64,000 nucleotides of DNA from an uncultured Chloroflexia bacterium (lineage in GTDB: Bacteria > Chloroflexota > Limnocylindria > Limnocylindrales > CSP1-4), in contig CAWFXA010000001.1 in assembly GCA_963819655.1 (NCBI GenBank), positions 448,001 to 512,000 on the forward strand, read 5' to 3'. A program made the position numbers and the translations under genes. Below the pieces are notes generated by a model. That model ran no database searches. It was not told the origin of the DNA and saw only the letters and a list, made by a program, of their open reading frames with translations. Within the stretch, counting starts at the first letter, position 1. Every line of letters begins with the position of its first letter. Below, one piece after another: positions 13,246-61,210 of this stretch.

Positions 13246-14774
13246 GCGCTCCCGGCACGACGATCCGTCCCGCGGGTCCGCCCCCAGCTCGACGCGCCCC
13301 GGCCGACCGCTCCGCGGTGGCGATGGCGCTGCTCATCGTCATGGGCTCGCTGGCCGCAGGGATCCTCGCGGCGGACGCGCCGCTACTGACGGTCGCGGGC
13401 GCCAGCGCGCTGCTGCTCGGGATCGCCATCGTCCTGCGACCGGACGTCGCGACGCTGACGACCATCGCGATCCTCTACACGAATGCGGCTGTGGTCGCCG
13501 TCCGGTTCCACGGCGTCCCTCTGTTCGTCGGGGCATTCGTGCCGGCCCTGCTCGTCGTGCCGCTGGCCCGCGATCTCGTCGTCCGTCGGCTGCCCGTCGT
13601 GGCGCCCCCGATGCTGGGCTGGATGGTCGTACTGCTGTTCATCCACGTGATCTCGGCGCTGTTCTCGAGCGACACCGTCGTGTCGTGGGATGCCGTCGTC
13701 ATCTTCGTCGTCGAGGGGTTCGGCCTGTATTTCCTGCTCATCAACGTCATCAGGACGCCGGAGATGCTGCGCTCGGTGACCTGGGTCCTCCTGATATCGG
13801 GCGCCCTGGTCAGCTTGTTGGCGATCCACCAGGTCGTGACGGAGAACTACGACAGCAACTATCTCGGTTTCGCACAGGCGGACTCGGCGATCCGCACAGG
13901 CGCCACCACGCTCGCCGGCGACGTCCTCCAACCCCGGATGGCCGGCCCGATCGGTGAGACGAACCGTTTCGCCCAGGTGATGCTCATGCTGGTGCCGTTG
14001 GGCCTCTTCCGCGCGATCGGTGAACGATCGACGTCGCTGCGGGTCATCGCCGGACTCATGACGCTGGCGATCACGCTCGGCGTCGTGCTGTCGTTCTCAC
14101 GGGGTGGGGCGGTGGGGCTGGCGGCGCTCGTGCTGGCGCTCATGGTGCTCAGGCTCGTCCGGGTGCGGCATGTGCTGGTGCTCGTGGTCGTGCTCGGACT
14201 CATCCTCGTGGCCCTTCCGCAGTACGCGAACCGGCTGACCTCCCTCGCCGACCAGGGCGGCTTCGGTGGCAGCACGTCGTCGGCAGTCACCGACACGTCG
14301 TTGCTCAGCCGCGCGACGGAGACGCTGGCGGCCGCGCTCGTGATCGTCGATCACCCCGTGCTCGGGGTCGGCCCCGACATGTTCCCCGTCTACTACGAGG
14401 AGTACGCCCAGGTCGTCGGGATCCTCATCCGGAACGATGCGGCCCGGGAGGCGCACAACCTCTATCTCGGCATCGGGGCCGAGCTGGGCATACCCGGGCT
14501 CATCGTGTTCCTCATCATCGCGGTGCTCACCATCCGGATGATCCTGGCCGCGCGACGCGCGAGCCTCATTCGACGCCCCGACCTCGAGCGCCTGACCACG
14601 CCGTATCTCCTTGCGCTGCTCACCTATTACGTGACGGGCCTGTTCCTGCACCTTTCCTTCGCCCGGTACTACTGGCTGATGCTGGCGGTGGCCGGTGCCG
14701 CGGCGATCATCACGCTCCGTGAGACCGCCGCGGACGAGGCCTCCGATCAGGGTGCCGTCAGCCAGTCCGTGTAG
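13242..14774 (+). CDS. O-antigen ligase / Wzy polymerase family
   Basis: Many TM helices; SFSRGG, HPVLGVG and AHNLYL...AELGIPG motifs. Confidence 0.87.
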   Translation: MSAPGTTIRPAGPPPARRAPADRSAVAMALLIVMGSLAAGILAADAPLLTVAGASALLLGIAIVLRPDVATLTTIAILYTNAAVVAVRFHGVPLFVGAFVPALLVVPLARDLVVRRLPVVAPPMLGWMVVLLFIHVISALFSSDTVVSWDAVVIFVVEGFGLYFLLINVIRTPEMLRSVTWVLLISGALVSLLAIHQVVTENYDSNYLGFAQADSAIRTGATTLAGDVLQPRMAGPIGETNRFAQVMLMLVPLGLFRAIGERSTSLRVIAGLMTLAITLGVVLSFSRGGAVGLAALVLALMVLRLVRVRHVLVLVVVLGLILVALPQYANRLTSLADQGGFGGSTSSAVTDTSLLSRATETLAAALVIVDHPVLGVGPDMFPVYYEEYAQVVGILIRNDAAREAHNLYLGIGAELGIPGLIVFLIIAVLTIRMILAARRASLIRRPDLERLTTPYLLALLTYYVTGLFLHLSFARYYWLMLAVAGAAAIITLRETAADEASDQGAVSQSV

Positions 14775-16561
14775 CCGAAGTTCTTGCCCGTCCGCGCGGG
14801 GGCGGGTCCGCGATACGCGGTGCCGTAGCGCCGGTCGATCAGCCAGGGTTGCCACTCGTCGTCGCCCTCGGCCACCCAGCCGGCACGTCCGTACAGGAAC
14901 CGGGTCGCGCGCAGCAGGGCGCGGTCCGACCAGTTCCAGGCGTCGTAGCCGGCAACGCGAAGCAGCTCTGCCTGGAGCACGGCACCCTGGAGGCCTTCCC
15001 AGGCGTACCCGGTCGGAGCCGGCGGCCAGGCGAACGTTCCGCCCCGCCGCATCTCCTCCGGCAAGGCGCCGCCGATGTCGATCCCGTTCTTCGTGCAGCC
15101 GGTCGGGTTGATGCCCACGGGCTTCGTGGGATCGCACTGCCAGGACAGATCGCCGTAGATGAAGCCGGCGTACGCGGCCCGGTCCCCGAGATAGCCGCGG
15201 AACACCTGGGCGGTCCGGGCCATCTCGGCCGAGTCGCCGAGGTACGCGGCGATCGCGGCACGCGCCGCCCCGGCGTGGGTGCCCCAGTTGTTCGGTCGTC
15301 GCTCATGCGTCTGACGCAGGGTCATGCCGTCGAGCGTCGTCGAGAGCAGTGCCCGGAGCCATGGCCGGAACGCCGCCGTATCGAACGCCGGGTCCAGCGT
15401 CCGGAGTGAGATCAGGTCGGCGGCGATCACATAGGCGGGGAGGTTGCGGCCCAATGCCAGGGTGCGGCCGCCGGATTCGGTGCCGAGCGCGGATCTCAGG
15501 CCGGCCAGCACGCTGGTGCGGTAGCTCGCGACGCCCGTCCGGGCATAGACAAGTGCCTTGGCGAGCACCACCTGGTCGGTGTTGTCGTCCTGGTTCGAGA
15601 TGTTCGGGGCCCCGAGCGCTGAGTCGGCACGGGCCTGCAGAGCTGTCCAGGCGGGACCGGAGGTCGGCAGGCGCCCGATCTCGGACGCCGACACGAGGAT
15701 GCCGCTCCCCGGCGCGACGACGAGCGGGCCCGACGGCGCGGTCGGCGTCGGCGATGGCGTAGGCGTCGGCGTCGGCACGGCGGTCGGCGTCGGCGTGGGG
15801 GTCGGGGTCGGCGACGCGGTCGGAGTCGCGGTCGCGGTCGGGGTGGGAGTCGGCGAGGCCGTCGGGGTCGGCGAGGCAGTCGGGGTCGGAGTCGCCGCCG
15901 CGGCAGGTGTCGGAGTCGCCGTCGGGGCGGCCGTCGGGGTCGCCGTCGGTGCCGGCGTCGGGCTGGCGGTCGGGGCCGCAGTCGGGGCAGCCGTCGGCAC
16001 TGGAGTCGCCGTCGGAGCCGCTGTCGGTGGCGCCGTCGGCGCAGGGGTCGGAGTGGGGACGGGCGTAACGCGTGGTTTCGCGCGTGGTGTCGCGACCGGC
16101 GTCGGCGCCGGGGTCGGATCCGGCTTCTTGGCCGGGGCGACGATCTCGACGGCCAGCAACCCGCGTTCGACACCCTGGTCGTCGACTGCCCGCAGCTCAT
16201 GCACACCGCGCTCGAGCGTCGGTGGCAGGCGAACCTTCACCGAGAACCGGCCTTTGGCGTTGGTGCGATAGGCGACCAGCTCCGTCCCGTCGGGCCACAC
16301 CAGGAGTCCCGTCTCAGCGCGGTCGAACCCGGTGCCGACGATGACGATGCGCTGACCCGGCGTCGGCGCGTCGGGCGTCACCGCCAGGGTCGGCGTCGCC
16401 GCGGCCGTCATCACGAACGGAAGGATGAGCGCAGGGATCAGCAGGATGATCGGCAGGGTCGCCAGGATGTCGCGATGCTTCGACCACCGGGACGGGGGCG
16501 GTGGTGGCTCCGGGTGCGAGAAGACCCAGTCCTTGCGATCGGCGATCCTGATGTTCCGCAC
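14747..16561 (-). CDS. Secreted or anchored alginate-lyase-like protein (paralog 1) with an Ig-like domain and Pro/Thr/Ala linker
   Basis: GGAGG RBS before the GTG; TM/signal segment; PT-rich linker; catalytic domain with NNWG and a C-terminal FGYTDWL shared with two neighbouring genes. Confidence 0.6.
   Translation of the reverse strand: MRNIRIADRKDWVFSHPEPPPPPSRWSKHRDILATLPIILLIPALILPFVMTAAATPTLAVTPDAPTPGQRIVIVGTGFDRAETGLLVWPDGTELVAYRTNAKGRFSVKVRLPPTLERGVHELRAVDDQGVERGLLAVEIVAPAKKPDPTPAPTPVATPRAKPRVTPVPTPTPAPTAPPTAAPTATPVPTAAPTAAPTASPTPAPTATPTAAPTATPTPAAAATPTPTASPTPTASPTPTPTATATPTASPTPTPTPTPTAVPTPTPTPSPTPTAPSGPLVVAPGSGILVSASEIGRLPTSGPAWTALQARADSALGAPNISNQDDNTDQVVLAKALVYARTGVASYRTSVLAGLRSALGTESGGRTLALGRNLPAYVIAADLISLRTLDPAFDTAAFRPWLRALLSTTLDGMTLRQTHERRPNNWGTHAGAARAAIAAYLGDSAEMARTAQVFRGYLGDRAAYAGFIYGDLSWQCDPTKPVGINPTGCTKNGIDIGGALPEEMRRGGTFAWPPAPTGYAWEGLQGAVLQAELLRVAGYDAWNWSDRALLRATRFLYGRAGWVAEGDDEWQPWLIDRRYGTAYRGPAPARTGKNFGYTDWLTAP
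15740..16125 (-). repeat. Low-complexity PT/PTA coding linker
   Basis: Degenerate 6-12 bp repeats encoding PTATP/PTPTP. Confidence 0.85.
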
Positions 16562-16653
16562 GACGTCCTCCCTGCTCCGCGACTGCGTAGGCGGGGAGCG
16601 TTGGACGCCAGCGCGACCAGGGAACGGGTCAGCGTCCCAAGGCGCGCTGCGAC

Positions 16654-16730
16654 TTCGGCAACCCGGCTACCTGGGATCCAGGCCCGTGGCTTTGCGGCCC
16701 CGCCTCGCGACGGGTGTGCCTGTTCGGTAT
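16654..16730 (-). ncRNA. c-di-GMP-I (GEMM) riboswitch upstream of lyase paralog 1
   Basis: Reverse complement reads GGCACACCCGTC-GCGA-GGCGGGGCCGCAAAGCCACGGGCCT...GGTAGCCGGGTTGCCGAA, with a GNRA-capped P2, GCAAAGC junction, P3 and 3' GGTTGCCG; about 90 nt before the start codon. Confidence 0.88.
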
Positions 16731-56482: not shown

Positions 56483-56608
56483 GCGCGAGTCTAGTCACCC
56501 CCACGCCCGGCGATGGTCCCATCGCCACCCATACCTCCAGCGTGGTGCGTGGAGAGGCCACGTTGGATACAACAGGACGACGACCCTCGAGACCTAGGAC
56601 CGTGCCGT

Positions 56609-59297
56609 TTGCCGAGTTTCAACAGGGGCATCCGCAGCCATCGAGAGCCACAGGCAGGCACATCCGCTGACGCTCGCTCGCTCAGCACTGTGCCGCTGCG
56701 GCATGGTCTCGTCGCATCCGCGGAACGGATCCCCACGCACGTCCGCGTCTGGGCCCTGACCGCCTTCCTGGCGGCGCTGGCCGTCGTCGGTTACGCGGTC
56801 CTGCTGGTCGATCGTCCGGGCCGCGAGGTGCCGATCGCCATCCCGTGGCCGGTGATCGCATTCGGGTTCCTCGTCGCCGAGCTCAAGGTGGTGCAGGTCC
56901 ATTTCCGCCGCGAGACGCACGCGTTCTCGCTGAGCGAGTTCCCGGCGGTCATCGGCATGTTCTTCCTGCCGCCCGCGGAGTACCTCCTGGCTGTCCTCGT
57001 CGGATCGGCAGCCGCCTTCGTGCTCACCGGCTCGCGCCCCGTCAAGCTCGCGTTCAACCTCGCGAACTACGGGCTGATCGCGGTCATCTCGATGGCGATC
57101 CTCCTGTCGATCGCATCGCCGACCGGTCCGCCCGGCATCCGCGAGTGGGCCGCGGCCTTCACCGCGACCACGTTCGCGACGGTCCTCAGCTCGATCACGA
57201 TCGCCCTCGTCATCACCCTCTCGGGCGGCGCACCGCAATTCCAGAAGCTGCCCGAGATGATCCAGTTCGGGAGCATGGTCGCGCTGGCGAACACGAGTCT
57301 CGCGCTGCTCGCCGTCACGATCCTGTGGCTCCAGCCCATCATGCTGTGGCTTCTCGTGCTCCCGCTCGTGATGATCTTCGTCGCCTACCAGGCGTACATC
57401 TCCGAACGCGAGAAGCACGAACGGCTCGAGCTGCTCTACGAGTCCTCGCGGATCCTGCAGCTGTCGCCGGAGATCGATTTCACGCTCGTGGCGCTTCTCA
57501 GCCACGCCCGCACGATGTTCCGGGCGGAGCTCGCCGAGGTCATCCTCTACCCGCGATCACCGGACGCCGAGGGCCTGTGGGCGCGGTCGTGGCACGACCG
57601 GGACCCCGAGGTCTCCAGCCCCACCAGCGACGCCCTCCAGGACTCGCTCCACGATCTCGTCCGATCGTCGACCGGGCCGTTCATGCACGAGACCCGCGAT
57701 CCGGACGGACGCGTGCGACGGCACATGGTCAGCGCGCTGCGCGGCGAGTCGGACATCATCGGCTCGATGGTCATCACCAATCGGTTGACGGAGGGGACCT
57801 CGTTCGGGGACGACGATCTCCGGTTGCTGGAGACCCTCGCCAACCAGACGGCGGTCGCCCTCGAGAACGGCCACCTGGAGCAGTCGCTGGCCGAGCTCTC
57901 TCGCCTCAAGGAGCAGCTCCGCCACCAGGCCTACCACGACCCGCTCACCGGTCTGCCGAACCGGACCCTCTTCCTCGAATCGGTGGGTGAGCGGATCGGT
58001 TCGACCGGCCCCGAGATGCCGGTCGTCATGTTCCTTGACCTCGATGACTTCAAAGTCGTCAACGACACCCTCGGTCACGAGGCGGGGGATCGGCTGCTGT
58101 GTGATGTGGCGGGCCGTCTGCGGACGACCCTGCGGTCCGGGGATATCGCCGCCAGGCTCGGCGGCGACGAGTTCGCGATCCTGCTCGACGACGACCCGGG
58201 TCTTGCCCGAGCCGAAGCGGTCGCCGACCGGATCATCGACGCGCTCCGCGCGACGTTCCCGCTCGAAGGGCAGGAGATCACGATCGGGGTCAGCATCGGC
58301 ATCGCCGCGGCCCGATCGGGCATCAGCGCGGACGAACTGCTGCGCAACGCGGATGTCGCCATGTACACGGCGAAGGCCACCGGCAAGAACAGGGTCTCGG
58401 TCTTCGAGCCGACCGTCCATGCCGCGATCGTCGCCCGCCACGAGCTGAGCGCCGAGCTGTCGCGCAGCCTCGGTCGCGGCGAGCTCCACGTCTTCTACCA
58501 GCCGATCGTGGAGTTGGCGACCCGTCGCGTGACCGGGGTCGAGGCATTGATCCGCTGGCAGCATCCGGTCCGCGGCCTGATCGGCCCGAGCGAGTTCGTG
58601 CACCTCGCCGAGGAGACGCGCCTGATCCGGCCGCTCGGTCGCTGGGTCCTGCTCGAGGCCTGCCGCCAGGCCGCCGACTGGGCCGCGGTCATCCCGGGCG
58701 GCGACGACCTGACGATGTCGGTCAACCTGTCCGCGCAACAGCTCCAGGAGCCCGACTTCGTCAACGACCTCCGCCAGATCATCGCCGACACCGGCATCCG
58801 CCCCCACCAGCTCGTCCTCGAGATGACCGAGACGGTCATGTTCCACGACACGCTGACGACCCTGTCCCGGCTTGCAGCCATCCGCGACCTGGGCGTGCGC
58901 ATCGCGATCGACGACTTCGGGACCGGCTACTCGTCGCTCGGCTACCTCCGCCGCTTCCGGGTCGACATCCTCAAGATCGCGCGCGACTTCATCGGACCGG
59001 CAGAGCGCGAAGAGGAGTGGGCGTTCGCGAGCGCGATCGTCGCGATCGGTCGATCACTCGGAGTGACGATGGTCGCCGAGGGCATCGAGGAGACCGGTCA
59101 GCTCGATCGGCTGCTCGCGCTGGGGTGCGAGCTTGGCCAGGGATACCTGTTCGCCCGCGCCAGCTCGGGCCGAGGACATCGGCGCGCTGCTCGGCGTCGA
59201 GCCGGCGGCGAGTCGCGCGACCGGGGAGCGGGCCGCCAAGGGCGGAACAGTGGCGTCGTCGGGCCGGCGACGGACCATGGCCATCGATCCGACCTAG
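56609..59297 (+). CDS. Polytopic membrane sensor - GAF - GGDEF - EAL protein; apparent frameshift near 59158, true stop probably TAG 59295-59297
   Basis: About 7-8 hydrophobic helices; GAF end F..DDLRLLETLANQ; HDPLTGLPNR, RLGGDEF, EALIRW, DDFGTGYSSL and GQGYLF motifs; shifted frame continues ARAEDIGALL. Start codon approximate. Confidence 0.88.
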
Positions 59298-59318
59298 GCC
59301 TGGGTTACCGAAGCCATC

Positions 59319-59915
59319 ATGTTCATCCTGTACGCGCTCGTGATCGGCGTCGGGGTCGGGCTCGCCCTCGGTGGGCGCCCCGCAGGGCTCGGCAGCCTGC
59401 GGTTCCGCTGGTCGGGCGTGATGCTCGCCGGGCTGCTCGTCCAGGTCGTGCTGTTCTCCGACGCGGTCGCGGGACGCATCGGCGCGCTCGGACCGCCGAT
59501 CTACGTGGCGTCGACCGTGTTGGTGCTCGCCGCAGTCGTCGCCAACCGCTCCATCCCGGGCATGGCCATCGTCGCGCTGGGCGCAGTGAGCAACCTTGCC
59601 GCGATCGTCGCCAACGGCGGGTACATGCCGGCGGCCCGATCCGCCCTGGACGCCCTCGGCAAGACCGATCCGACGACGTATTCCAACAGTGCGACCGTCG
59701 AGCATCCGGCCCTCGGGCCGCTGACGGACATCTTCGCGATGCCCTCGTGGCTGCCCTTCGCGAACGTGTTCAGCGTCGGCGATATCCTCATCGTCGCCGG
59801 TGTCGTGACGACGATCGTCCTGGCGATGCGGAGCCCCGCGCAGGACGGCGAAATGGGCAGGGGTGCCCCCGAGCAACTCCCCCATCCAGCCGACCTCGCC
59901 AGTACGGTCGAGTGA
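59319..59915 (+). CDS. DUF5317-like membrane protein, putative intramembrane peptidase
   Basis: LGGR...L.FRW, SNLAAIVANGGYMP, L.PLTDIF and NVFSVGDILI motifs recalled as DUF5317; about 5-6 TM helices. Confidence 0.8.
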   Translation: MFILYALVIGVGVGLALGGRPAGLGSLRFRWSGVMLAGLLVQVVLFSDAVAGRIGALGPPIYVASTVLVLAAVVANRSIPGMAIVALGAVSNLAAIVANGGYMPAARSALDALGKTDPTTYSNSATVEHPALGPLTDIFAMPSWLPFANVFSVGDILIVAGVVTTIVLAMRSPAQDGEMGRGAPEQLPHPADLASTVE

Positions 59916-59975
59916 CTGGTCCCGCGTCCTCGCCGGCCGCACCATCCCGAACGAGGGACGCTCGTCCCCCCGCTA

Positions 59976-60057
59976 ACCGGATCGTCCAGGGCAAACCCGT
60001 CGCGAGGCGGGGACGCAAAGCCAGGGATCTCTCATTCGAGACCGCCCGGCTGCCGGT
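59976..60057 (+). ncRNA. c-di-GMP-I (GEMM) riboswitch
   Basis: GGGCAAACCCGTC-GCGA-GGCGGGGACGCAAAGCCAGGGATCTC...GAGACCGCCCGGCTGCCGG matches the canonical GEMM-I pattern. Confidence 0.92.
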
Positions 60058-60095
60058 CCTGCGAGCGTCGACCCTTCGCTGAAGAAGGAGAACGC

Positions 60096-60185
60096 GTGAA
60101 GGCGAACCTGGCGCGCTTCACCTGGGCACTCACGCTCCTGGCCAGCATGGCCCTGACCGTGGGAGCCGGGATCCGGTGGAACTGA
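60096..60185 (+). CDS. 29-aa peptide MKANLARFTWALTLLASMALTVGAGIRWN (not in ORF track)
   Basis: AAGGAG at 60085-60090, 5 nt before the GTG; directly after the riboswitch; basic N-terminus plus hydrophobic core. Confidence 0.8.
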   Translation: MKANLARFTWALTLLASMALTVGAGIRWN

Positions 60186-60187
60186 CC

Positions 60188-60283
60188 GTGGCGGCATACG
60201 TCGCGGCCTCGACCGACCGGGTCCAGTCGACGACCGGGTACCACCCCGAGATCGTCATCGAGTCCGGGCACCGCTGGGGCTGA
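60188..60283 (+). CDS. 31-aa peptide MAAYVAASTDRVQSTTGYHPEIVIESGHRWG (not in ORF track)
   Basis: GTG starts 2 nt after the stop of peptide 1; GC3-rich codons; shares the terminal G-x-R-W-x motif. Confidence 0.6.
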   Translation: MAAYVAASTDRVQSTTGYHPEIVIESGHRWG

Positions 60284-60427
60284 GTTCCAGCGAGCCGATC
60301 TCATCGAGGGGCGCCGGCCACGCCGGCGCCCCTCGTACGTGTCCGGGATGGGCGCCTGGCCTCCGGAACGGGGATCCTGGACCCACTCGTGCATGGTGCT
60401 ACTCTTGTGTGCATGGGAGGACCGCGC

Positions 60428-61210
60428 ATGACGGTTCCCTGGGTGGATGCCCCCCCGGAAGACGCTCGCCGCGCTCTTGTGCTCCATGATCGCCCAGCGG
60501 TCGTGGACCTCATCGAGCTGACGCTGAACCACGGTCTCTTCGTGGTCCGAGCCGCGCAGACCCTGACCGAGGCGATGGATCTCCTCGCGACGTGGCACCC
60601 GCATATGGCCGTCGTCGACATGGATCACGACGAGAGTGCCGACTTGCTCAAGCGCCTGGGCGCCTCCAATAACCTGGCGGCGAGCGGCACGCCCGTCCTC
60701 GGCCTCACGCGCCGCGGCGATCTGCGGAACAAGCTCAAGGCATTCGACCTCGGGGTGGACGACATCCTGGCGATGCCGTTCTCACCGGAAGAGTTGTTGG
60801 CCCGGTCGATCGTGATCACGCGTCGGGCTTCGGGGGTCGACCGACCGATCGTCCCCACGATCAGACTCGGCGAGATGGAGATCGACATCGTCAATCGTGT
60901 GGTCCGTGCGGGCTCTTCCGTGATCCACCTGAGCTCCATCGAGCAGAGCCTGTTGTACCTGCTTGCCAGCCGGGGTGGTCGGGTGATCTCCCGGGACGAG
61001 ATCCTGGACGGCGTCTGGGGCACCGACTTCGTGGCCGAGAGCAACATCGTCGATCGCCATATCCGGAGCCTGCGGATCAAGCTGCAGAACGACTACCGCC
61101 ACCCGCGCTTCATCGAGACGGTCCCGGGCAAGGGCTATCGGTTCATCCCGACATTCTCGAACCAGGGCTGGGACGGTGGGTCCGGCGCGGCCGAGGATCC
61201 GCCCGACTGA
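60428..61210 (+). CDS. OmpR-family response regulator (no adjacent kinase)
   Basis: GGAGG RBS; VVDMD, GVDD...PFSPEELLAR, VDRHIRSLR.KL and IETVPGKGYRF motifs. Confidence 0.9.
   Translation: MTVPWVDAPPEDARRALVLHDRPAVVDLIELTLNHGLFVVRAAQTLTEAMDLLATWHPHMAVVDMDHDESADLLKRLGASNNLAASGTPVLGLTRRGDLRNKLKAFDLGVDDILAMPFSPEELLARSIVITRRASGVDRPIVPTIRLGEMEIDIVNRVVRAGSSVIHLSSIEQSLLYLLASRGGRVISRDEILDGVWGTDFVAESNIVDRHIRSLRIKLQNDYRHPRFIETVPGKGYRFIPTFSNQGWDGGSGAAEDPPD

Follow-up and report, generated by a model that had tools for sequence, protein, structure and literature searches.

A DUF5317 membrane protein, possibly related to signal peptidase II, encoded beside a putative c-di-GMP riboswitch and mini-peptides in an uncultured Chloroflexota bacterium

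Introduction

What does a membrane protein from a family without a known function do next to genes for peptides of 29 and 35 residues? The question is raised by a 64,000-nucleotide stretch of DNA, hereafter the window, from an uncultured Chloroflexia bacterium (GTDB lineage Bacteria; Chloroflexota; Limnocylindria; Limnocylindrales; CSP1-4; GenBank assembly GCA_963819655.1, contig CAWFXA010000001.1, positions 448,001 to 512,000 of the forward strand). In this window, the gene for a protein of the family DUF5317 is followed by a putative riboswitch for cyclic diguanylate (c-di-GMP) and by the two short genes (Table 1). A preliminary description of the locus had noted aspartate motifs in the protein that resemble those of the signal peptidase II LspA, and had proposed a dedicated peptidase for a neighbouring, non-lipoprotein peptide. 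That description contained neither the riboswitch nor the second peptide, nor the association of the family as a whole with c-di-GMP enzymes. We consider it possible, if still short of probable, that DUF5317 is an LspA-like intramembrane aspartyl peptidase acting on the neighbouring mini-peptides. We infer both the catalysis and the substrate from conserved motifs, a predicted fold, and gene linkage.

A large family with two invariant aspartates

The assignment of the gene product to DUF5317 was confirmed by a match to the Pfam family PF17248 with an E-value of 3.2e-26. The score is 92.6 bits, which is above the Pfam gathering cut-off of 25. The same family was matched by all 51 diverse representatives (51/51). 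The family is large: 3,721 matches at E <= 0.001 were obtained among 8,000 candidates scored in a 90%-clustered collection, and clustering at 50% identity leaves 2,614 representatives. DUF5317 is present in 48 of 151 sampled Chloroflexota genomes, with matches in Thermus and Thermotoga control genomes too. A full-text literature search for 'DUF5317' found no paper.

The motifs follow one another in the 198-residue translation in the order first described, namely SNL (residues 91-93), NGGYMP (99-104), LTDIF (135-139), and NVFSVGDILI (149-158). Residues Q42, N76, P104, L135, D137, P142, S152, G154, and D155 are invariant in 51/51 diverse full-length representatives, and N92, N99, G100, G101, M103, N123, F151, and G161 are at least 90% conserved in them. 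A second set of 78 core sequences includes other Chloroflexota lineages, with identities down to 23%. D137, D155, N76, G88, N92, M103, P104, G154, and G161 are invariant in 78/78 of these. The motifs around D137 and D155 are conserved across diverse relatives and are therefore a property of the family, not a chance feature of one sequence.

The AlphaFold2 model of the full-length protein has a predicted local distance difference test score (pLDDT) of 92.6 and a predicted template modelling score (pTM) of 0.84. Its helices span residues 2-16, 32-45, 48-75, 82-98, and 153-171. A structured loop (99-152) precedes the last helix and contains short strands at 137, 139-140, and 150-151. By the positive-inside rule, this conserved loop and both aspartates would face outward.

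Likeness to LspA

The preliminary description had proposed a structural comparison with LspA, and the outcome depends on the part of the protein that is compared. A Foldseek search with the full model returned nothing at E <= 0.001 and placed LspA (5dir_C) at rank 42 (E 8.4). In a second look at the full model, LspA stood at rank 1 of 69. The aligned part of the full model corresponds to residues ~43-172, and the core was therefore folded alone (residues 44-176, 78-row alignment, pLDDT 87.4). With this core, VIA-align placed LspA at ranks 1-2 among 48,161 chains. Foldseek gave only three matches with E <= 10 among 350,542 PDB chains, and all three are LspA (E 3.5-4.9, template modelling scores 0.39-0.48). 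The LspA rows have the highest sequence identity in the structural lists, 18-21% compared with 3-13% for most other rows. The structural alignments begin at LspA residue 56-59 and end at core residue 127 (residue 170 of the protein) against residue 158 of 5dir, which, for a last helix without gaps, places D155 on D143. A search of the ESM Atlas with DUF5317 clusters excluded gave no usable match. As modelled, the DUF5317 core has LspA as its closest solved fold.

The genome encodes a canonical LspA elsewhere (contig 3, 125.1 bits); DUF5317 is thus no replacement for LspA. For comparison, we used an alignment of 29 Chloroflexota LspA sequences. Their invariant residues, in the numbering of the genome's own LspA, include N117, R121, D129, N144, A146, and D147, and also D33, K37, N64, G66, and F69. 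D129 and D147 are the equivalents of D124 and D143 in the Pseudomonas aeruginosa enzyme, according to a phmmer alignment to PDB chains. The two aspartates are 18 residues apart in DUF5317 (D137/D155) and in the genome's canonical LspA (D129/D147) alike.

Profile alignments were made with hhalign. With full-length alignments and default settings, the top solution was an unrelated 18-column N-terminal match with a probability of 2.5%, which is not significant. The second solution (1% probability) pairs N123 with N117, D137 with D129, F151 with F143, D155 with D147, and G161 with G153. When the 78 DUF5317 cores were aligned with the 29 LspA sequences, an LspA-type alignment came out on top (99 columns, probability 5.9%, E 0.0064, score 22.6). 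It pairs helices 3-4-5 of DUF5317 with helices 2-3-4 of LspA, in agreement with the structural match, and sets D137 on D129 and FSVGD on FNVAD. None of 120 column or block shuffles reached the score of 22.6 (mean 12.2, standard deviation 2.3, maximum 19.7). The reversed alignment scored 12.9, and the DUF5317 and LspA alignments scored 14.4-16.9 against an unrelated membrane domain.

Peptidase_A8 (PF01252), the Pfam family of LspA, is the second Pfam match of the DUF5317 protein (E 0.0099, 16.5 bits, residues 78-168 against profile positions 82-139 of 142). Neither this score nor the 15.5 bits found in the genome scan reaches the gathering cut-off of 25 bits. Just two of the 51 DUF5317 representatives match Peptidase_A8 at E <= 1, and LspA was absent from searches of PDB sequences with the single sequence and with the DUF5317 profile. 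At the sequence level, the likeness to LspA appears real but weak, with a signal that lies above composition and below proof. The parallel originally drawn between the two sets of motifs survives for the aspartates, which are invariant and in register with the LspA pair. Its other part, the pairing of SNL (N92) with the GNL of LspA, was not reproduced; hhalign sets the LspA asparagine on N123 instead, with low confidence.

Short units of three helices and a loop often superpose, and the likeness could be convergent or coincidental. DUF5317 would then have another function, for example on a lipid or glycan of the outer leaflet. We regard this explanation as unlikely. The LspA hypothesis was fixed beforehand, yet LspA came first among all 48,161 chains, with two aligners and with the highest identity, and the profile alignment agrees in the pairing of the helices and in the register of the aspartates.

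A comparison with LspA (signal peptidase II, MEROPS A8; structures 5DIR and 6RYO/6RYP) shows which features are common to both proteins. Both have the Asp pair 18 residues apart. One Asp lies in a loop strand (..D-F/I..) and the other where the last helix begins on the outer side, in F-x-x-x-D-x-x-I-x-x-G. The topology of the last two helices would also be alike. LspA has four helices, whereas DUF5317 has five, the first two of which take the place of helix 1 and the beta-cradle of LspA. DUF5317 alone has an insertion of 26 residues, which bears an invariant NGGxMP motif. By family criteria, DUF5317 is not a member of A8. It could be a distant sister family of A8 with a common core.

Sub-threshold Peptidase_A8 matches in other Chloroflexota were considered as possible intermediates between DUF5317 and LspA; they form a separate family and are not DUF5317. 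Mini LspA-like proteins of ~125 residues (176 residues with the longest start in L037) are encoded on the plus strand of loci L037 (451-981), L038 (591-965), and L039 (582-968). They score 20.7-23.9 bits, just under the Peptidase_A8 cut-off. They carry ...GGLCGN...GYATDW...LTNVAD... and are apparently without the beta-cradle part.

Mini-peptides and the putative riboswitch

A putative c-di-GMP-I-GGC aptamer lies between the DUF5317 stop codon and peptide 1, 37 nt before the GTG of the latter. The sequence CCCUUC at 60072-60077 is complementary to the Shine-Dalgarno-like GAAGGAG of peptide 1, and both the minimum free energy and the centroid folds pair CCUUC (60073-60077) with GAAGG (60084-60088). 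The fold of this expression platform is no stabler than those of shuffled sequences (z -0.29), so this pairing is only a suggestion. A scan of 59200..60500 for promoters and terminators found none.

The only other c-di-GMP-I-GGC riboswitch in the genome is also located in the window (16653..16729, minus strand, 64.6 bits). The 604-aa open reading frame (ORF; 14747..16561, minus strand) that it precedes by ~90 nt has a hydrophobic stretch at the N-terminus and a long linker rich in Pro, Thr, and Ala. Control by the variant riboswitch is therefore not confined to mini-peptides.

The signal-like, Cys-less neighbour of the preliminary description proved to be a conserved, translated gene linked to DUF5317. 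Peptide 1 has a positively charged N-terminus, a single hydrophobic helix, and then G-A-G-I-R-W, so that it ends in ...TVGAGIRWN. It is the sole ORF of the strict peptide-1 type in the 3.49-Mb genome. Peptide 2 has lost the hydrophobic stretch in the clade of the window and has kept the G-H-R-W end. The same ORF is found in L041, L042, and L044, and hydrophobic versions with the end ...LVLEAGHRW occur in many other loci.

Like the substrates of LspA, the candidate substrate of DUF5317 has an N-in, signal-like helix followed by small residues. LspA substrates have the lipobox Cys at +1, whereas Cys is absent from the G-A-G site and the residues behind it in all 38 peptide-1 sequences. The end ...T-x-G-A-G also resembles the small-x-small site that follows the signal-like helix in substrates of type I signal peptidase. 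It differs from these in that the 'mature' remainder would be only 3-6 residues. The close association with DUF5317 would favour a dedicated enzyme. Complex predictions for the DUF5317 protein of L047 and its peptide 1, made with alignments, gave scores of 0.22 and 0.18 against a mark of 0.32 and are neutral on binding.

The cluster in related loci

Related loci were collected with a 15-sequence alignment, and the best 80 of 588 confirmed loci were used. They come from species-representative genomes, almost all of which are metagenome-assembled genomes of Limnocylindria. The peptide pattern was defined as a small ORF on the same strand that ends in [AGS]-G-x-[RK]-W and lies within 1.2 kb after DUF5317. 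At least 53 of the 80 loci have a G-x-R-W peptide after DUF5317, 51 by the pattern and two (L054 and L090) with a G-A-W-M-R-W variant. The pattern has a genome-wide rate of 58 frames in 3.49 Mb on both strands, from which ~0.8 in 80 loci would be expected by chance. The strict peptide-1 pattern is present in 39/80 loci. The non-consensus fractions in peptide 1 are 0.157, 0.078, and 0.283 for the three codon positions, and 5,389 of 11,739 codon differences are synonymous. This variation fits a translated gene.

The aptamer was found by nhmmer in 46/80 loci, ~30-40 nt before the peptide. A riboswitch of the same Rfam clan scored above the gathering score in all 11 of the nhmmer-positive loci that were submitted to Rfam, as RF03167 in ten and as RF01051 (c-di-GMP-I) in L070. 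An orthologous membrane-bound GGDEF-EAL gene adjoins DUF5317 in 43/80 loci.

The link is kept where the gene order has changed. L070 and L082 have the riboswitch first, followed by peptide 1, peptide 2, and then DUF5317. L148 has the riboswitch and both peptides, with an upstream enzyme of the HD-GYP type. In L134, which comes from another Chloroflexota family, a gene for a 28-aa peptide ending in GAGIHWT lies between DUF5317 and an HD-GYP gene, and there is no riboswitch. DUF5317 is linked to a peptide without a riboswitch in L051, L059, L091, and others as well. Several loci have a peptide-2-type ORF ~100 nt after DUF5317 without the riboswitch or the GGDEF-EAL gene.

Some loci contain 2-3 aptamer copies within 1-2 kb, apparently each before a further G-x-R-W peptide gene (L060, 6274-6359; L078, 3862-3942; L118, 3119-4384). 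L118 has three peptides.

The wider family and alternative functions

We surveyed 29 loci from other Chloroflexota lineages. A gene of the HD_5 (HD-GYP) type adjoins DUF5317 on the same strand in 14 of them, and three of these 14 (L127, L146, and L147) have weak MASE9 matches below the 1e-5 limit. A BTAD regulator adjoins in 10/29 loci and MFS_3 in 3/29 (L138, L140, and L144, with an AI-2E-family transporter). DUF5317 is fused to MFS_1/MFS_3 in both orders in P0188, P0231, P0244, P0195, and L005 of the window's own genome, and P0157 is a DUF5317-GAF-GGDEF fusion. The genome has two further copies of DUF5317. One of these stands alone, and the other is the L005 copy, which is fused to MFS next to a gene of the HD-GYP type. 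In L005 (contig 2, 602863-603309 region), DUF5317 is N-terminal to MFS_1/MFS_3 and directly downstream of HD_5, and the same fusion is found in several relatives.

A c-di-GMP riboswitch was not found beside the two other copies in the genome or in 20 loci from other lineages of the phylum. In 5/29 loci, DUF5317 is followed by a gene of the Os1348/NHLP clan ('Frankia_peptide'). These genes encode proteins of the type of precursors of ribosomally synthesized and post-translationally modified peptides (RiPPs), are unrelated to the G-x-R-W peptides, and in two of the five cases score above the NCBIfam cut-off. A BTAD regulator is upstream in L131, L135, and L137, and A-R-W is found near the C-terminus of the L131 and L145 peptides. 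The neighbourhoods across the family thus tie DUF5317 to membrane-domain c-di-GMP enzymes and, repeatedly, to unrelated small peptide genes.

These neighbourhoods are the basis of the main rival to a peptidase, by which DUF5317 would serve c-di-GMP enzymes as a membrane partner or sensor and would have no catalytic activity. It would bind the membrane domains of the GGDEF-EAL or HD-GYP enzymes, or the mini-peptides, and relay a signal. The Asp pair would bind a ligand or a cation, and the peptides would be small regulatory membrane proteins. The adjoining GGDEF-EAL gene in 43/80 loci, the HD_5 gene in 14/29 loci and beside the paralogue L005, and the P0157 fusion all fit such a role. A precedent also exists in small membrane proteins that are controlled by riboswitches and act as regulators whose partners are unknown (PMC13724677). 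No c-di-GMP enzyme adjoins DUF5317, however, in 37/80 and 15/29 of the loci. LspA is the top structural match, and an invariant pair of acidic residues that lies at the outer face and is placed as in LspA points to an active site more than to a scaffold. We consider a partner or sensor function somewhat unlikely.

The MFS fusions in both orders, and the MFS_3 gene that adjoins DUF5317 with an AI-2E-family transporter in three loci (L138, L140, and L144), suggest yet another function. DUF5317 could be a small transport or ion-binding protein, or an accessory of an MFS exporter that, for example, moves the neighbouring peptides, with the Asp pair as a substrate or cation site. We consider this very unlikely. 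The core consists of only three helices and a loop-borne Asp, the fold searches gave no internal repeat or channel-like match, and coupling of a peptidase to an exporter would explain the fusions equally well.

Proposed mechanism and related systems

In the peptidase mechanism that we propose, helices 3-5 and the outer loop of DUF5317 would form an LspA-like core, probably as a remote relative of peptidase family A8. D137 and D155 would lie at the outer membrane face, where LspA has its catalytic pair. The substrates of DUF5317 would be short membrane peptides that resemble signal peptides, with the cut near the outer helix end. In the lineage of the window, the two downstream mini-peptides are the candidates, each with an N-in helix, small residues, and the conserved G-x-R-W end. 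With K2 and R7 of peptide 1 on the inside, its G-A-G-I-R-W end would lie on the same side of the membrane as the aspartates of DUF5317. This geometry would match that of LspA meeting the lipobox, and for this reason an LspA-like aspartyl hydrolase is favoured. The c-di-GMP-I-GGC riboswitch would set peptide synthesis by reading the c-di-GMP that is made or broken down by the upstream GGDEF-EAL enzyme.

Several observations weigh against a peptidase of this kind. The strongest segment of the hhalign alignment is a helix hairpin and not the region of the aspartates. The LspA invariants of the N-terminal helix and beta-cradle (D33, K37, N64, G66, and F69) have no counterpart in DUF5317. The same is true of R121, the Arg of GNxxDR, and DUF5317 has no conserved Arg. 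N144 and A146 of FNxAD are replaced by the invariant S152 and G154. The small-residue site G-A-G could equally be cut by an ordinary type I signal peptidase. The fusions to MFS and to GAF-GGDEF are as compatible with a module for sensing or transport as with a peptidase. No G-x-R-W peptides were found beside the two other DUF5317 copies of the genome or in most of the 29 other Chloroflexota loci. The Asp pair is invariant family-wide, whereas the G-x-R-W peptides occur in part of the family.

A further step would close the system into a feedback circuit. In such a circuit, c-di-GMP from the membrane GGDEF-EAL or HD-GYP enzyme would control, through the GGC riboswitch, how much of the 29-35-aa membrane pro-peptides is made. 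DUF5317 would cut these behind the small-residue site and free x-R-W peptides of 3-6 residues on the outside of the cell, where the membrane sensor of the same c-di-GMP enzyme would detect them. We regard the complete circuit as quite improbable. If it were true, DUF5317 would be a new family of signal-making intramembrane aspartyl proteases, and the wider family would mature other peptides, for example those of the Os1348/NHLP type.

Small hydrophobic peptides of the pheromone type that are matured by a membrane protease are known from streptococci, where Eep acts on SHP and ComS. Their precursors are likewise ~20-35 aa long, with a hydrophobic helix and a Trp-containing C-terminal part. That system differs in having a zinc site-2 protease, an ABC exporter, and cytoplasmic Rgg receptors, none of which was seen here.

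If homologous to LspA, DUF5317 would add a second bacterial family to the A8-type fold. The link to LspA provides a large family without a known function with a testable mechanism, which includes two named aspartates, a candidate substrate, and known inhibitor classes. The cluster would also explain the control target of one copy of the poorly understood GGC variant, namely unannotated mini-peptide genes.

A parallel comes from Clostridioides difficile. In a 2026 study, class I c-di-GMP riboswitches control 58-aa membrane-associated proteins of the CD1980.2 family, whose partners are unknown (PMC13724677). As in the window, these are tiny, formerly unannotated membrane proteins with genes right after class I c-di-GMP riboswitches, often in several copies (PMC13724677). 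The 58-aa proteins reportedly have no homologues outside C. difficile (PMC13724677). In contrast, the peptides described here are 28-35 aa long and have the G-x-R-W end, the riboswitch belongs to the GGC variant, and DUF5317 and a GGDEF-EAL or HD-GYP gene accompany the peptide genes. Our results would extend the C. difficile finding (PMC13724677) to a distant uncultured phylum and add a candidate for the partner protein that is missing there. Among the eight best-ranked of 119 matches in a literature search on c-di-GMP riboswitches, small proteins, and Chloroflexi, only the C. difficile study was relevant, and none of the eight dealt with Chloroflexota. As far as these searches show, the c-di-GMP/peptide module is undescribed, and DUF5317 is possibly the second family with an LspA core.

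Table 1. Features of the DUF5317 locus in the window, and Os1348/NHLP-type genes of other loci (numbered within each locus)
Feature	Position	Strand	Basis
Membrane-domain/GAF/GGDEF/EAL protein (c-di-GMP synthesis and breakdown)	56513..59297	+	Pfam EAL 6.5e-72, GGDEF 4.5e-44, GAF_3 7.5e-09
DUF5317 protein, 198 aa, five predicted membrane helices, conserved 53-residue outer loop	59319..59915	+	Pfam PF17248, AlphaFold2 model
Codon of D137 (LTDIF), candidate first catalytic aspartate	59727..59729	+	Invariant; aligned by hhalign to D129 of own LspA (P. aeruginosa D124)
Codon of D155 (FSVGD), candidate second catalytic aspartate, outer start of last helix	59781..59783	+	Invariant; aligned by hhalign and by structural-alignment register to D147 of own LspA (P. 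aeruginosa D143)
Putative c-di-GMP-I-GGC riboswitch aptamer	59981..60058	+	Rfam RF03167, 65.8 bits (gathering score 59), E 6.5e-15, full model 1-80
Shine-Dalgarno-like GAAGGAG, 6 nt before peptide-1 start	60083..60089	+	Read from sequence
Peptide 1, 29 aa (MKANLARFTWALTLLASMALTVGAGIRWN), GTG start, no Cys	60096..60185	+	Translation
Peptide 2, 35 aa, GTG start overlapping peptide-1 end, ends ...ESGHRWG	60176..60283	+	ORF list
OmpR-type response regulator	60389..61210	+	Pfam Trans_reg_C 7.6e-23, Response_reg 3.5e-10 (weak receiver match)
Os1348/NHLP-type genes, 83-110 aa	L125 813-1061; L131 2058-2327; L135 2019-2348; L137 2038-2358; L145 2236-2496		

Neighbouring genes in the window

The OmpR-type regulator downstream of the peptides has no histidine kinase gene beside it and is found downstream in L041 and L042 only, the two closest relatives, among the 80 loci. 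It is probably not part of the conserved module.

The GGDEF-EAL frame upstream of DUF5317 is continuous only if a 1-base insertion near 59160 is ignored, an extra G relative to L041 and L042. This G (~59155-59165) shifts the frame ~46 codons before the stop at 59295-59297 and thus gives rise to a spurious frame of 1,189 codons that continues across DUF5317. The extra base may come from an error in the assembly; otherwise, the protein is truly truncated in its tail beyond the EAL domain. The N-terminal membrane domain of the GGDEF-EAL protein (56693..57500, plus strand; ~260 residues, multi-helix) matches no Pfam family even at E <= 1. It is conserved, with 50-96% identity, in the orthologues adjoining DUF5317, and is a candidate sensor domain.

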